From contig CAMAPH010000002.1 in NCBI GenBank assembly GCA_945859975.1, positions 91,768-155,767 of the forward strand: a stretch of 64,000 nt of DNA, read 5' to 3'. Of this stretch, positions 11,437 through 22,387 are shown one piece after another. Below the pieces are notes generated by a model. That model made no database searches. It was not told the DNA's origin and saw only the letters and a program-made list of their open reading frames with translations. The translations under genes were made by a program, and so were the position numbers. Numbering within the stretch: position 1 is the first letter of the stretch; every line of letters begins with the position of its first letter. This DNA is from Chthonomonas calidirosea. GTDB taxonomy: Bacteria > Armatimonadota > Fimbriimonadia > Fimbriimonadales > Fimbriimonadaceae.

Positions 11437-11461
11437 ATTGCTCCTGTTTTCTCGGAAGCCT

Positions 11462-11602
11462 TCGGCAACAAAAAAGCCCCTGCCCAAACCGAAGGACAGA
11501 GACGTGTGCGAGGCGAACCTCCAACGTATTCTCTTGTATCCCCTCGGCGGGCCGATCCTTGCGAATCGCTTAAGGCAATTAAGCCACCTGCTGTCTCCAG
11601 AG
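11462..11602 (-). promoter_or_regulatory. Ribosomal protein L10 leader with attenuator hairpin
   Basis: Minus strand GAGACAGCAGGTGG...TTAA...CCCGCCGAGG resembles the L10-leader consensus. It is followed by a GC stem and U-tract (GGGGCTTTTTT) upstream of the rplJ RBS. Confidence 0.75.
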
Positions 11603-11644
11603 TTCGTAAGAGTATGACACGAGCGATGCCGCAGAATGCAACAC

Positions 11645-17165: not shown

Positions 17166-18314
17166 TTGGCAGGAGTAGCGTTCAAAAGCGTAACAAAGGT
17201 GTACGGTAAGGACGTCAAGGCGGTCAGCGACCTCAACCTCGACATCCAAGATCAAGAGTTCATGGTCCTCGTCGGGCCTTCAGGCTGCGGAAAAACCACC
17301 GCCCTGAGAATGATCGCCGGCTTGGAAGAAGCGACCGGTGGAGACATCATGATCGGCGACGTTCGCGTCAACGACGTTCCGCCAAAGGATCGAGACATAG
17401 CGATGGTTTTCCAAAACTACGCGCTCTATCCGCACATGAACGTGTACGACAACATCGCGTTCGGTCTTCGGCTTCGAGAACTCAAGAGCTTCTTCTGGCA
17501 AATCACCCATTTGGCCGAAGCCAAGACGATCAAGGAAGACATCGACAAGCGGGTCAAAGAAGTTGCCCGTATGCTGGACATCGAGAAGTACCTCCATCGA
17601 AAGCCGAAGGAACTCTCAGGCGGTCAACGACAGCGTGTCGCTCTTGCGCGAGCCATCGTCCGAAAGCCGAAAGTCTTCTTGATGGACGAGCCGCTATCGA
17701 ACCTGGACGCAAAGCTCCGCGTTCAAACTCGAGCCGAGCTCATTCGACTTCACCGCCAGCTCGGAATCACGACCGTATATGTCACCCACGACCAGGTCGA
17801 GGCCATGACGATGGGCCAGCGAATGGCCATCATGCGCGACGGCATCCTCCAGCAGTGCGATCAGCCTGAAAAGGTCTATCAGTACCCGGCAAACAAGTTC
17901 GTTGCGGGCTTTATCGGCTCTCCTCCGATGAACTTCATCGATGCTGAGATTCGCATGGAGAACGGTGTCGCGATTGTTGACGCCGGGGAGTTCAAGCTTC
18001 CGGTGCCAGATGGCAATCCTGCAGCTCACATGAGCGGCAAAAAGATCACCCTCGGCATTCGCGCTGAAGACATTCACGACGCTGCCATTCCAAGCAACGT
18101 GGTTGCGACCGATGCGAATAGCGTCCAGGCAACCGTTGACGTAATGGAACCACTCGGCCACGAGTACGTTGCTTATCTGAAGATCGGCAAGATCAACCTA
18201 GTTGCTGCCATCAGCAACGAGAGTAAGGTCCGCGTCACCGAAGTCGCCAAGTTCGTGGTCAACCTTGACCGCGTACACCTCTTCGATGCCGAGACCGAAC
18301 AGGCAATCCGCTAA
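17166..18314 (+). CDS. Sugar ABC transporter ATP-binding protein (MalK/MsmX/UgpC family)
   Basis: GPSGCGKTT, LSGGQRQRVALARA, MDEPLSNLDAKLR, TOBE-like C-terminus. AGGAG RBS. Confidence 0.95.
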   Translation: MAGVAFKSVTKVYGKDVKAVSDLNLDIQDQEFMVLVGPSGCGKTTALRMIAGLEEATGGDIMIGDVRVNDVPPKDRDIAMVFQNYALYPHMNVYDNIAFGLRLRELKSFFWQITHLAEAKTIKEDIDKRVKEVARMLDIEKYLHRKPKELSGGQRQRVALARAIVRKPKVFLMDEPLSNLDAKLRVQTRAELIRLHRQLGITTVYVTHDQVEAMTMGQRMAIMRDGILQQCDQPEKVYQYPANKFVAGFIGSPPMNFIDAEIRMENGVAIVDAGEFKLPVPDGNPAAHMSGKKITLGIRAEDIHDAAIPSNVVATDANSVQATVDVMEPLGHEYVAYLKIGKINLVAAISNESKVRVTEVAKFVVNLDRVHLFDAETEQAIR

Positions 18315-18328
18315 GAAACCTGAATCCT

Positions 18329-18367
18329 AAAAGCGCGAGGTGAACCTAGGTTCCCTCGCGCTTTTTT
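18329..18367. terminator. Bidirectional intrinsic terminator
   Basis: AAAAGCGCGAGG...CCTCGCGCTTTTTT between convergent units. Confidence 0.85.
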
Positions 18368-18380
18368 GCGTCTTCTGTTT

Positions 18381-18576
18381 CCCCTAAGGGCGACGACGGG
18401 ACTGACCGCGGGAAGAGTCTTGATGTTTAAGGTTTGAGGATTGAAGTCACGAACTTTGAGTTTTGAGGCCATAGGCCGCTTGATCAGGTTCAATGATTCT
18501 TGTCAAGAATCAGCCAGGATTCGATGTTGATCGAAGGTGCTAAGTCAGTCGTATTCCGTCAATCGCCCTTAGAGGC
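18381..18576 (-). ncRNA. Candidate novel structured ncRNA downstream of the DIP1984-like gene
   Basis: Closing stem 18381-18406 / 18544-18575 (10+5+7 perfect bp plus two G-U pairs that form only on the minus strand), internal hairpins, a heptamer repeat array, and TAGAAT 7 nt upstream of the stem. Confidence 0.6.
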
Positions 18577-18596
18577 GGCTTCATTCTATCGGTTTT

Positions 18597-19046
18597 TCAC
18601 TCGGAAAACTCAATGGAAACGGTGGCGTTGTGCTCGTCCAGACGATCCTGAAGTTCGTCGATCTCCGCTTCAAGCCGCGATACTTCTTCTTCGACTTCGC
18701 GGGCGGAAAGGGTCGCGATGTACTCCTGCGGTTCCTGCATTCCGTACGGTTGCATGAACTTTCCCGACGTGGTCGGAATCCTCCGCAAGAAGCTGATGTG
18801 ACTCTTCAGTTCCCCGATGCGATAGATCGTCTCCTGAATCGGAGCATTGGCGAGGCTAATTGCCGCTTTCAATTTCACGAGCGCCTCAGTTGCATTTCGG
18901 AGTTCAGCGAGACTTGCCGCCACATCAAACTCTTCCCTGCCGCCAACGAGGCGCGAATTGTGAGCGGTCACGATGCCCTGAAGCTTTTGAATCTTCGCCA
19001 CTTGGCGATTCTTGAGCTTCAGGGCTTTCGCGAGCGAGATTGCCAT
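18597..19046 (-). CDS. DIP1984/DUF6847-like alpha-helical coiled-coil protein (149 aa)
   Basis: MAISLAKALKLKNR...KAAISLAN...YRIGELKS...EIDELQDRLDEHNAT. ATG overlaps the upstream TAA (TAATG). Confidence 0.75.
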   Translation of the reverse strand: MAISLAKALKLKNRQVAKIQKLQGIVTAHNSRLVGGREEFDVAASLAELRNATEALVKLKAAISLANAPIQETIYRIGELKSHISFLRRIPTTSGKFMQPYGMQEPQEYIATLSAREVEEEVSRLEAEIDELQDRLDEHNATVSIEFSE

Positions 19047-21577
19047 TACTGGACGGTAACCCAGACCGATGTGCTCGCCGAACCGAACTGAACGGTTCCG
19101 CGGGTGAACTTCCAGCAGGACTGATAGAGGCCAACGGTGTTCGGCGCCGTGAGTCGAGCCTGAACCGTGATCGTTTGGCCAGGTGCAACGTTGCTTCCGG
19201 GCGGCATTCCGAGGCGGCTCTTGCCGAATGTGGTCGACCCCACGGGCATTGAGGTCAGCGCAAGGCGCTGCACATCCGCCGAGGTCCAGTTCTGCGTACC
19301 GGCGTTTCGGAACGTGAACGCGACCGTGAAGACTTGCCCCGGTGCGACCGTGTTCGGAACCTGCTGGGAAACAAACGCGGCATCCCATTCGGTGTTGACC
19401 GACATTGGGACCGAAATCGTCGTGGTCGTTCCGTTACCGTTGGTAACCGTTAGCGTTGCGTAGAGTTTTGCGCTAGGCGTGATAGCGGCATGATTCAGCA
19501 CGACTTCATTGCTGGTCGGAGCAATTTCGGTGTTCGCGACAACATCGCCTGCGCCAGCCGTTCGACCAATCTTGATCTGGTACTTCTCGATTCCCGTCTC
19601 GGTGTCGTATGCCCAGAGCTTGAATCGAGTCGCCGAGTAGGCGCCACCCGTCGGGACGCCTTCCCAGTTGGAAAAAGCAAATCGATCCACGATCGGCGCG
19701 GTGTCATCACCGGTGTAAGTTCCGCACCAGAAGTCCGTCGCCGGTGCATCGCTGCCCGAAATGACTTCGACGCGCCGGACCTTAGTCTTCCCAAAGGCCA
19801 CCGCGGTTACGGTGTACATGCCCGGTGCCAGCTGGTCGTATCGGTACGTACCGTTAGCAAGCGTCGAGGTTTGGTAGGTGATCGTGCCACCGTCCTTCTT
19901 AGCGCGAACCGTAGCGTTGCCTTGTGCAGTGCCTTCGTTGTAGACGATTCCTTCGATTGCCCCGGCGGTAGCTCCTCGGGAGTCCGCATCCTGCAACAGA
20001 TAGTAAGCATCAAGCGAGCCGTAACCCTGGTGGGTCTCCCAAGAGCCTTTCGGTGCGCCGTACACGCTCAGTGCCGACCGCTGCAAGGCTCGATAGGCCC
20101 GAAGGTTCTGCATGCCCTGAGCTCGATCCATATCGTTCTTGCCGTAGTACAAGCTTGCCGCGCCCGCGACGATCGGGCTCGCCATCGATGTTCCAATCAA
20201 GTAGCCGTAGCCAAGGTCATATCCTGGCGCCCCGACGTCCATGATCGGGTTATGGGTGGTCATCGTGGTGGAGTAGATGTACGCCAGCATCGCGATCGGG
20301 TCTTCGATGTTGCTGTAATCGAGGATGATGTTTCCTCCTGGTGCAGCGAGGTCGATGTACGAACCGGTTCCCGCGTAGTAGTCCGAGGCATGGATGTAGC
20401 CGTAGCCGTTCGCGGTGACCGCGAAAGCGCCACTGCAAGCCGCAGGATAAATCGGCCCTAAGTCACCGCCACCGGCGCCGTCCTCGTTACAAGCCACCAC
20501 GACGAGGACTCCCTTCTGCCAGGCGTAGGTCACCGCGTCCTGGAAGAGCTGCGAGAAGTTTTCCGTGCCAAGGCTAAGGTTGATGATGTCCACGCCATGA
20601 TCGGTCGCGTAGAAAATCGCGCCCGCCGCATCGGCGTCTGAGCCGTTTCCGGTGTCATCGAAAACGCGGAGATTGATTCCCTTGCTTGGATAGCCGAGCC
20701 CGACGATTCCCTTTCCGTTCCAGTTTCCGTTGTTCCCAGAAGCAAGGGCAAGTCCGGTGACGTGAGTGCCGTGCCCCATCGCATCTTCGGTGGATCCTTC
20801 TTGCAGAACTTCGCCAAAGCTGAACTGGGCGTCCAGGCTCAAATCGAACTGCCCGCCTTCTTCGATGCTGCTGTCAAATCCCCCGGCGTTGATGAAGTCC
20901 GGGTGTTGTCGCTCAACTCCGGTGTCGATGACCGCGATCATCGGCACGTTCTGTGGTTTGTCGGCGCTCGTAAACCATCGATTGGGCCAATCGTTCCAAG
21001 CATCGAAAGCGCTGGTCTCGTCGAGATACCAGAGCCGGCGATACGTGACGCCCTCTCCGAGCGGAATCATTGGCTCTCCGATTTCAATAACGTTCCAGTC
21101 CCCGTCATTGGGCTCTGGCAAGAGCGGATAAATTTTGTTGAGCGGCTGTGCCGCCACGACGTTTGGTTTGCCCTTCAGGCTTGCCGCGACCGCCTTGGGA
21201 TCCTCGCCCTTTCCGAGTTGCCATACCGTCCAGCCGGACCGCTGAATCCGGTTTCGAAAATTCTCGGAGCGCAATCCGGTAGGCACAAAACGAGCGCGCG
21301 TCGCTTCGGTTTTCGTTAGCTCTGCCGCAACCTTGGTCGGAAACTTGACCAAAACGTAGCCAGGAACGATCTCGTTCTTGCGCTTCGCGGGAATGTTTCG
21401 CTTCAAGATGCTTCGCAAAACCAATCCCAGTGGTTTCGGTGCAAAAATAGAAACGGCCGGATTACCGATGACTCGGCTTCTCCGTCCTAGCGATTCGCTC
21501 ACGGGACCAACGGTCTGGGCGGGAGCAACGGCAACCAGAAATAGGCTTGCAGCCAAACTCAAAACTCTAAAATTCAT
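19046..21577 (-). CDS. Secreted S8 peptidase with carboxypeptidase-regulatory-like, Ig/FN3-like and NBR1-Ig-like domains
   Basis: AVIDTG / HGTHVTG / GTSMASP triad, then GAIEGIV...LAPGMYTVTA and a C-terminal FRNAGTQNW...VAPGQT. Confidence 0.88.
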   Translation of the reverse strand: MNFRVLSLAASLFLVAVAPAQTVGPVSESLGRRSRVIGNPAVSIFAPKPLGLVLRSILKRNIPAKRKNEIVPGYVLVKFPTKVAAELTKTEATRARFVPTGLRSENFRNRIQRSGWTVWQLGKGEDPKAVAASLKGKPNVVAAQPLNKIYPLLPEPNDGDWNVIEIGEPMIPLGEGVTYRRLWYLDETSAFDAWNDWPNRWFTSADKPQNVPMIAVIDTGVERQHPDFINAGGFDSSIEEGGQFDLSLDAQFSFGEVLQEGSTEDAMGHGTHVTGLALASGNNGNWNGKGIVGLGYPSKGINLRVFDDTGNGSDADAAGAIFYATDHGVDIINLSLGTENFSQLFQDAVTYAWQKGVLVVVACNEDGAGGGDLGPIYPAACSGAFAVTANGYGYIHASDYYAGTGSYIDLAAPGGNIILDYSNIEDPIAMLAYIYSTTMTTHNPIMDVGAPGYDLGYGYLIGTSMASPIVAGAASLYYGKNDMDRAQGMQNLRAYRALQRSALSVYGAPKGSWETHQGYGSLDAYYLLQDADSRGATAGAIEGIVYNEGTAQGNATVRAKKDGGTITYQTSTLANGTYRYDQLAPGMYTVTAVAFGKTKVRRVEVISGSDAPATDFWCGTYTGDDTAPIVDRFAFSNWEGVPTGGAYSATRFKLWAYDTETGIEKYQIKIGRTAGAGDVVANTEIAPTSNEVVLNHAAITPSAKLYATLTVTNGNGTTTTISVPMSVNTEWDAAFVSQQVPNTVAPGQVFTVAFTFRNAGTQNWTSADVQRLALTSMPVGSTTFGKSRLGMPPGSNVAPGQTITVQARLTAPNTVGLYQSCWKFTRGTVQFGSASTSVWVTVQ

Positions 21578-21715
21578 GGGCAGAACCAATCCTCAGAGAG
21601 AGTTTAACGGAAAAAAGTCAAAAGACCAACCATTCCTCCCCCAGAACGTTAGCCTTTTTAGACTTGGAATAGGAAGGCGTTGTTCCGTGGCAAGTAACCT
21701 GTTTGCAGGTCGGAT

Positions 21716-22387
21716 TTGAGCATGTTTTTCTGCCTGCGAATCGATGTCGATTACGTTCCGTGGGATACGCCAGATGCGGAGGAGTTTGGGCATGGCGAGC
21801 CGGCGATGTTACTGCGAATCTTCGAGTTTGCAAAGGAGCGAGGCCTGAAGTTCCAGTTCTTCGTTTCCAACCGAGTGATCCGAGCTTTTCCCACTACCGC
21901 CGATGCCATTTTGAACGAGGGACATGATCTCGATTGGCTCTGCAAGCATCCCGATGATTCCGCCTCCCGCTACGAAGAGGCCCTTGTTCTTCTCCGGGCC
22001 ATTGGACATTCGCCACGAGGCGTCGCGGTAAAGCAGGTTTGGCCAGAATCGGCAGCGACCCAGCACTTCGAAGGCATCGAATTCCTCAGCTCCGAAGGGG
22101 CCTTTTGCCCAACCGCATGGCGGCACTTTCCGATTGAGCTGAAGCAAGCGCGTTCGGCGCAGCAAGCCGGGATGAGTGTTCGGACTTGGACCGATACGGC
22201 CAAGAGACTCGTGCGCGACGCTGCGAGCCGTAATCGCAACGTGACGATCGCGGTCCGGCCTCAAGCACTTGCTCGTTGGGACCCTCGTCTCACCCACCTC
22301 GCCGAAATCGTGGACCTCGCCACCGCCGTGATGCTGCCCGTGATGACTCTTCGTGAGGCGTTTAGCGTAGCCCAGGCAGATTCATAA
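21716..22387 (+). CDS. Polysaccharide deacetylase-like (NodB-fold) protein with degenerate motifs
   Basis: LRIDVD, GEPAMLLRI...GLKFQFFV...ILNEGHDL. Confidence 0.6.
   Translation: MSMFFCLRIDVDYVPWDTPDAEEFGHGEPAMLLRIFEFAKERGLKFQFFVSNRVIRAFPTTADAILNEGHDLDWLCKHPDDSASRYEEALVLLRAIGHSPRGVAVKQVWPESAATQHFEGIEFLSSEGAFCPTAWRHFPIELKQARSAQQAGMSVRTWTDTAKRLVRDAASRNRNVTIAVRPQALARWDPRLTHLAEIVDLATAVMLPVMTLREAFSVAQADS

Follow-up and report, generated by a model that had tools for sequence, protein, structure and literature searches.

Does the small DIP1984-like gene at this locus stand alone, or does it come with an RNA of its own? The question arises from the 64,000-nucleotide (nt) window analysed here (Chthonomonas calidirosea assembly GCA_945859975.1, contig CAMAPH010000002.1, positions 91,768 to 155,767), in which a gene for a protein of 149 amino acids (aa) is followed on the minus strand by a 195-nt element with long complementary arms and a tract of 7-nt units. 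The DIP1984 family has had a crystal structure since 2009, and we know of no role for it; its members are widely mislabelled 'septicolysin'. A first-pass annotation of the window had proposed the gene and the element as an undescribed module of a protein and a noncoding RNA. From homologous loci, covariation and structure prediction, we conclude that the structured RNA is almost certainly real, is encoded on the same strand as the DIP1984-like gene and is linked to it genetically. The two probably form an undescribed protein-RNA particle.

A structured RNA follows the DIP1984-like gene

The RNA begins 21 nt beyond the stop codon of the 149-aa gene and is predicted by RNAfold to form a closing rod, P1, around head hairpins and a heptad tract (Table 1). 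P1 has 29 pairs, two of them G-U, and its arms alone pair at -46.4 kcal/mol. The minus strand folds with a minimum free energy of -93.6 kcal/mol (z = -6.3), and 0 of 200 dinucleotide shuffles folded equally well. The long-range stem that the first-pass annotation had seen past the stop codon is this rod, and the coordinates it gave for the gene, stem, hairpins, heptamer array and terminator all proved correct by open reading frame (ORF) call, RNAfold and reading of the tract. Within the tract, YYAA starts at offsets 2, 9, 24, 31, 38 and 45 (spacings 7, 15, 7, 7 and 7), counted from a stretch that starts two bases before it. Tandem Repeats Finder gave the tract no score, because the units are degenerate.

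A covariance model, R2, built from relatives only, recovered exactly 18381-18575 on the minus strand (36.2 bits, E ~1e-9). The element is single-copy in the 3.1-Mb genome, and the gene likewise occurs once. When the window was searched against Rfam 15, there was no match for the RNA at the gathering threshold, and the element region had none at E values up to 10. Counting the searches of 20 related and 20 canonical DUF6847 loci as well, the database returned solely transfer RNAs (tRNAs) and an unrelated L10 leader. The earlier statement that no RNA family is assigned to DIP1984-like genes therefore agrees with Rfam 15, which gave no family for the RNA of the window or for those of the related and canonical loci.

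The gene and the RNA occur together across phyla

We collected 111 homologous loci using a conserved N-terminal peptide as the seed. Most (80) came from metagenomes; reference genomes, mostly of Planctomycetota, contributed 21 and the genus Fimbriimonas (Armatimonadota) the other 10. Distinct loci with 150 nt or more of sequence beyond the gene numbered 95. When these were scanned with a heptad-tract profile, at least 79 showed the RNA 3' of the gene and on its strand, and most of the remaining 16 carried A+T-rich versions, seen by eye or weakly by covariance model. The pair spans Armatimonadota, Planctomycetota, further bacteria and huge-phage-like contigs. The first-pass annotation had suggested looking downstream of homologs for a closing stem that covaries and for YCAAA-type repeats; both turned up, the repeats as YCAA-type 7-nt units.

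The RNAs share a common plan. A rod of about 30-35 pairs with small internal loops, whose 3' arm starts a few nt past the end of the tract, closes a head of one to three hairpins that differ in number and sequence between clades, and eight or nine heptad units follow; the whole RNA measures 163-225 nt. In many loci it starts 0-21 nt past the stop codon, and in several the two are parted by 110-180 nt or by a terminator-like hairpin. Terminators follow the RNA, and its orientation relative to the gene is constant.

Within the genus, the gene was found in 10 of 46 genomes. The clade covariance model gave full-length RNA matches in eight of these 10, and the remaining two have a divergent form; the 36 genomes that lack the gene yielded one weak full-length match (E 0.007). 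The immediate neighbours vary by lineage, and the gene and the RNA therefore behave as a self-contained two-part module.

The rod covaries and lies on the gene's strand

In cross-clade MAFFT alignments the heptad tract aligned well and the inner rod did not, so that RNAalifold saw the outer helix alone. We used instead clade-specific covariance models, R1 and R2, and an alignment-free arm-swap test; R1 detected other clades weakly. In the window's clade (12-sequence alignment; R2 from six relatives), the outer 14-base-pair (bp) helix of P1 was 92.5% paired, and 10 of its 14 pairs had changed on both sides; slid controls were 32-59% paired. A GAUC/GAUC helix in this clade was weak (73% paired). 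In a second clade, whose outer helix is GUGCGCGG.../...CCGCGCAC, a model-based alignment of 27 sequences had 87.7% of cells paired, with both sides changed in 38 of the 62 pairs; slid controls were 30-42% paired. All five rod helices and two head hairpins were supported there. Shuffle controls, which overstate significance because the sequences are related, agreed: 0 of 500 attained four of the five whole-structure measures in the window's clade, and 0 of 500 attained any measure in the second. The slid and arm-swap controls are free of that weakness. Helices that RNAalifold had proposed inside the heptad tract of the second clade were unsupported (57% paired).

The arm-swap test was applied to 46 non-redundant elements. 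Cognate arms paired at a mean of -49.4 kcal/mol and non-cognate arms at -30.1 kcal/mol, and in 36 of the 46 the cognate arm ranked no lower than third, the arms ahead of it belonging mostly to its own clade. For the window, the values were -46 kcal/mol for the cognate arm and -26 kcal/mol for the best non-cognate arm. Compared with the complement, the gene's strand gave stabler arms for 39 of the 46 elements, by 7 kcal/mol on average, and the arms contained 198 G-U pairs on that strand compared with 116 on the other. With a rod that covaries in two clades and this G-U asymmetry, the conserved RNA that had been proposed downstream of the gene, on its strand, stands.

The heptad units form a conserved rail that is predicted to be partly unpaired

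We aligned 40 heptad tracts from all clades and several phyla, and the 7-nt units fell into perfect register. An adenine recurs every seven columns, invariant at three unit positions and nearly so elsewhere; the base before it is C (75-88%), the one before that U or G, and the one after it A or G. Four columns of the alignment are invariant, and the tract ends in an invariant U within CCUCWU. The tract was predicted to be more unpaired than the rest of the element in 45 of 46 elements, and in the window the predicted unpaired probability was 0.60 in the tract compared with 0.30 in the remainder of the element. Conservation of unpaired bases with free spacers between them is a signature of direct recognition.

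A separate observation concerns heptanucleotide microsatellites in genus genomes that have no match to the protein (L134:1562-1703; L129, L133, L135). These arrays are long and near-perfect, with about 20 copies of TCAAGGC, or with GACTCAA or AGATCAG variants, or as long perfect (GGCTCAA)n, and their consensus matches the rail unit. One array lies directly past the stop codon of a 361-aa ORF, its flank is common to two species, and several arrays are at contig ends.

The protein has the DIP1984 fold

The 149-aa protein matched Pfam DUF6847 (PF20935) with an E value of 1.1e-3 and 19.3 bits, under the 27-bit cut-off, and NCBIfam DIP1984_fam (NF038048) with 33.5 bits, under the 70-bit cut-off, its residues 5-143 aligning to profile positions 2-147. 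By curated score it thus falls short of membership in DIP1984/DUF6847, whereas fold and whole-length profile-profile comparison both place it there. An AlphaFold2 model built with 22 homologues (predicted local distance difference test score 94) consists of three long helices and a small sheet. Foldseek ranked PDB 3KDQ first (E 3e-4, probability 1.00, template-modelling (TM) score 0.70); this is an uncharacterised Corynebacterium diphtheriae protein and the namesake of the DIP1984 family. A sequence search for solved relatives had given merely weak coiled-coil noise, and the fold search was required. In hhalign, comparison with canonical DUF6847 gave a probability of 95.9% (E 5.8e-9) over 136 aligned columns. 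The NCBIfam match, the Foldseek hit and hhalign uphold the initial DIP1984/DUF6847-like assignment, and on the basis of profile and model comparison the protein is best filed as a divergent sister clade of that family.

This clade comprises 2097 clusters at 50% identity (E up to 1e-3). Conservation is strongest in a basic N-terminal motif, LAKALKxKNR, and at invariant Asn, Ser, Thr, Gly and Gln positions. The literature on DUF6847, DIP1984 and septicolysin held annotation mentions on Acinetobacter plasmids and no function, and two queries of a plasmid collection returned no homologue of the protein.

Jumbo phages and giant viruses also encode proteins that share the fold. Homologues were seen in two huge-phage genomes of 595 and 462 kb (LR756511.1:280140-280550 and LR756500.1:432085-432510). 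On a phage-like contig (L123), the homologue adjoins genes for DHH, HNH, peptide deformylase and an intein-containing ribonucleotide reductase, and it carries the RNA downstream.

Canonical DUF6847 genes have a downstream RNA of another type

The canonical DUF6847 branch includes at least 998 proteins at E values up to 1e-10. Of 201 Armatimonadota genomes, 24 carried a canonical gene; among the controls, Deinococcus radiodurans scored positive. At 20 canonical loci of Armatimonadota (L136-L155), a conserved RNA of a different type, which is not in Rfam 15, lies about 0-260 nt past the gene. It has a closing stem, a T-arm-like GGGUUCGAUUCCC hairpin, a G-rich 3' GAGGGCGGG...GGGG motif and a 7-nt-periodic tract, UACAAGC GCACAGG GCA..., shorter than that of the window type. 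Since the canonical genes too have a downstream RNA with 7-nt periodicity, the partnership is a trait of the whole superfamily. In Armatimonadota, tRNA arrays flank the canonical genes.

tRNA genes and RtcB in the neighbourhood

In the GUGCGCGG clade (clade A), same-strand tRNA genes flank 22 of 30 loci. The typical order is tRNA-Ile, the gene, the RNA and then tRNA-Phe, which starts 0-9 nt (mostly 4-9 nt) past the 3' arm. Because the RNA is bounded by a tRNA here, tRNA processing would release it as a discrete molecule. RtcB often comes next: at L087, L112, L088, L096, L109 and other clade-A loci the order is fixed, with tRNA-Phe, in some cases tRNA-Arg, and then RtcB. Some clade-A contigs have larger tRNA arrays upstream. 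RtcB, downstream in 6 of 72 loci, was the top neighbour family. TROVE was absent from the families listed for neighbours (146 flanking ORFs), and the window's own neighbours are a subtilase and a MalK-like ATPase. A literature search found no paper that ties RtcB, tRNA arrays and such an RNA together.

Comparison with known systems

Ro60 (Rsr) works with bacterial Y RNAs (Yrn1, YrlA), including in an rsr-yrlBA-rtcBA operon (PMC4201824; PMC7790460). The present module resembles this system in having a noncoding RNA of roughly 100-200 nt beside the partner gene, with a long stem formed by its ends as a handle and a functional head, in the linkage to RtcB in some lineages and in the T-arm-like GGGUUCGAUUCCC hairpin of the canonical-type RNA. 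It differs in that the partner is an unrelated three-helix protein, there is no TROVE/Ro60 gene and Rfam Y RNA models gave no match. Moreover, the window RNA has a heptad rail and no tRNA-like domain; ARAGORN and the Rfam tRNA model found no tRNA within any window-type element.

TRAP and HutP are homo-oligomers that recognise short tandem repeats: HutP sites, in the hut leader, consist of UAG plus four spacer bases with a period of 7 nt, and TRAP reads (G/U)AG units in the Bacillus trp leader. As in those systems, the units here are evenly spaced and single-stranded, with an invariant core and free spacers, and their number, eight or nine, would fit one unit per subunit. Unlike those systems, the units are nnYCAAr and lie 3' of the gene in a stand-alone RNA closed by a rod, not in a terminator-switching leader, and the DIP1984-like protein is all-helical, with no ring known for it.

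OLE RNA with OapA/B/C and the raiA motif are orphan structured RNAs associated with genes and came from comparative genomics. The present RNA is likewise defined by covariation and a fixed gene neighbour, is widespread and is obscure in its biochemistry, whereas sequence, structure and partner all differ and Rfam 15 gave no match. In ToxIN, the toxin gene is preceded by repeats of about 36 nt, which the toxin, an endoribonuclease, cleaves. The shared feature is a small protein gene adjoining a tandem-repeat RNA; neither the repeat length, nor the upstream position, nor the endoribonuclease fold applies to the window module.

A proposed protein-RNA particle and its alternatives

We lean, with some reserve, towards the view that the RNA is a stable, trans-acting and dedicated partner of the DIP1984-fold protein encoded upstream. 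In the window, it would be made as the 3' portion of the transcript of the subtilase and 149-aa genes, ending at the terminator 18329-18367; in clade A, it would be excised from a tRNA operon. The rod of about 30 bp, with its near-constant length, could serve as a rigid handle, from which the head would hold out a single-stranded rail of YCAAr units, eight or nine in number and regularly spaced. The elongated three-helix protein, in several copies or as an oligomer, may then bind this rail, each copy reading one 7-nt unit, and so build a ribonucleoprotein particle. The invariant basic motif LAKALKxKNR and the conserved Asn, Ser, Thr and Gln are candidate RNA contacts. That the protein binds the rail with one copy per unit is a reading we slightly favour, given the genomic linkage, the invariant unpaired bases and the analogy with TRAP and HutP. 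The particle might serve to maintain tRNA or RNA, through repair or quality control, rather than act in toxin-antitoxin function or defence; this role, suggested by genomic context, is possible and decidedly tentative.

Several observations weigh against these proposals. The sample of loci is biased to one protein clade, because an N-terminal peptide seeded it, and the motif is truly missing at L045, L110 and L111 and perhaps at L038. The plus strand of the window folds lower than the minus strand (-104.1 compared with -93.6 kcal/mol), and the strand call therefore rests on the comparative G-U test and the orientation of the gene. In thermodynamic folding the tract is unpaired only in part (mean 0.45), and the protein has no recognised RNA-binding domain. 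RtcB is present in the window's own genome and unlinked there, and its co-occurrence in the genus is uninformative because 39 of 46 genomes carry it. Finally, at L019 (genome G015) the gene reads as frameshifted, its match split over three frames with three TGA and one TAG, and the RNA is intact (L019:1291-1487, minus strand, 31.6 bits). Either this is a real pseudogene with a surviving RNA, or the fragmented genome contains assembly errors.

A cis-acting element of the 3' untranslated region (3'-UTR) would account for the short distance of 0-21 nt between stop codon and RNA at many loci and for the strand that gene and RNA invariably share; it might shield the messenger RNA from 3' exonucleases or serve as an autoregulatory operator, the protein having its main job elsewhere. 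The promoter scan, which showed no promoter between the window's gene and the RNA, fits as well. A constant 30-bp rod and an invariant rail of eight or nine units across phyla exceed what a stabiliser needs, however, and at several loci the gene and the RNA are set apart by 110-180 nt or by a terminator-like hairpin. The clade-A RNA borders on a tRNA whose processing would release it, and at L019 the RNA is kept beside a frameshifted gene. We regard a cis-acting element as unlikely.

That surviving RNA at L019 would equally suit an independent small RNA or sponge, whose YCAAr rail titrates, for example, a global RNA-binding protein or nuclease, with the gene as a passenger or accessory. The (GGCTCAA)n arrays in genus genomes without a protein match have the same unit consensus, so another reader of the unit might exist. 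Set against this, gene and RNA adjoin each other at 79 or more of the 95 loci, in different phyla and diverse gene contexts; the full-length genus matches essentially track the gene; and the canonical protein branch has a downstream RNA of its own. An independent RNA is thus rather improbable.

A type III-like toxin-antitoxin or anti-phage module, in which a repeat RNA neutralises a toxic protein, had been among the functions suggested in the first-pass annotation. A small protein gene does adjoin a short-repeat RNA, in varied contexts and in phages. PADLOC, however, yielded nothing credible beyond a single weak coiled-coil hit (E 0.004), itself not convincing, and PHROGs yielded no match; the fold is a three-helix rod and not a ToxN/AbiQ-like endoribonuclease; the RNA is downstream of the gene, with 7-nt units; in the window the overlapping upstream gene encodes a protease of housekeeping type; and the genes that recur nearby are those for tRNAs and RtcB, not defence genes. 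This part of the earlier proposal found no support and is very improbable.

Long terminal inverted repeats, a 7-bp periodic array and good folding of both strands might also indicate a DNA-level element (a miniature inverted-repeat transposable element (MITE), a cruciform, or a 7-bp binding-site array such as iterons or a centromere), but the compensatory substitutions in the arms, G-U pairs that favour one strand and the fixed orientation to the gene leave next to no probability for it, and we consider it excluded. A transposable or repeat element of the MITE or repetitive extragenic palindromic (REP) type is ruled out, with one copy in 3.1 Mb.

If the RNA is indeed a dedicated partner of the protein, this would be the first functional handle on a large protein family. 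It would also add a new class of structured RNA, strongly covarying and with a single-stranded rail of unusually strict periodicity, to the few bacterial RNAs that have a dedicated protein. The placement in tRNA operons beside RtcB and the occurrence in huge phages suggest that tRNA or RNA maintenance has a layer still to be explored. More broadly, the DIP1984/DUF6847 superfamily and its downstream RNAs might be an unrecognised, widespread class of ribonucleoproteins in bacteria and huge phages, in which a helical protein builds up along a rod-held 7-nt rail, one unit after another, and the particle acts on tRNAs or damaged RNA alongside RtcB; we offer this as a speculation that falls somewhat short of likely. 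The module is small (149 aa and about 195 nt), and its components are directly testable in vitro.

Boundaries and neighbouring genes in the window

Table 1. Positions in the window of the RNA, its parts and the adjoining genes and terminator.
Feature	Position	Strand	Basis or detail
Structured RNA, 195 nt (rod, head hairpins, heptad tract)	18381..18575	(-)	RNAfold and covariance model R2
Closing rod P1, 5' arm, 37 nt	18539..18575	(-)	RNAfold; clade covariation
Closing rod P1, 3' arm, 29 nt	18381..18409	(-)	Begins 2 nt past heptad tract, as in all clades
Head hairpin 1	18520..18535	(-)	6 bp, 4-nt loop, RNAfold
Head hairpin 2	18494..18512	(-)	Perfect 9-nt inverted repeat and RNAfold
Head hairpin 3	18467..18477	(-)	GGCC UAU GGCC, immediately 5' of heptad tract, RNAfold
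Heptad tract, 55 nt, eight 7-nt units nnYCAAr	18412..18466	(-)	Last unit CUCUUC
DIP1984-like gene	18597..19046	(-)	149-aa ORF, stop UGA at 18597-18599
Upstream subtilase (S8) gene, 847 aa	19046..21589	(-)	Its UAA stop overlaps ATG of 149-aa gene
Predicted intrinsic terminator	18329..18367	(-)	12-bp perfect arms in longer predicted G+C-rich hairpin, then UUUU

The subtilase gene and the 149-aa gene probably form one transcription unit. The same TAATG overlap of stop and start codons occurs in the window's closest relatives, and a relative with a 62%-identical protein has a 52-nt gap, so the coupling of the two genes is lineage-specific. The order aldehyde dehydrogenase, S8, gene, RNA and convergent MalK is found in that relative too. 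The subtilase (19046-21589, minus strand), like the one at L121:3457-5949, has a C-terminal immunoglobulin-like N_BRCA1_IG domain and a CarboxypepD_reg domain. The promoter scan found no sigma-70-like promoter in 18000-22000.

The strong terminator hairpin (18367-18329) lies 13 nt past the 3' arm of the RNA, flanked by a run of A on one side and of U on the other. It is shared with the convergent gene for a MalK-like ATP-binding cassette ATPase, which ends at 18314. A simple consensus scan did not pick it up; a G+C-rich hairpin with a U run at the end of the unit, as expected of an intrinsic terminator, is present. Elsewhere in the window, a ribosomal protein L10 leader (Rfam RF00557, 48.2 bits) was found at 11461-11618 on the minus strand, the sole Rfam match of the window.

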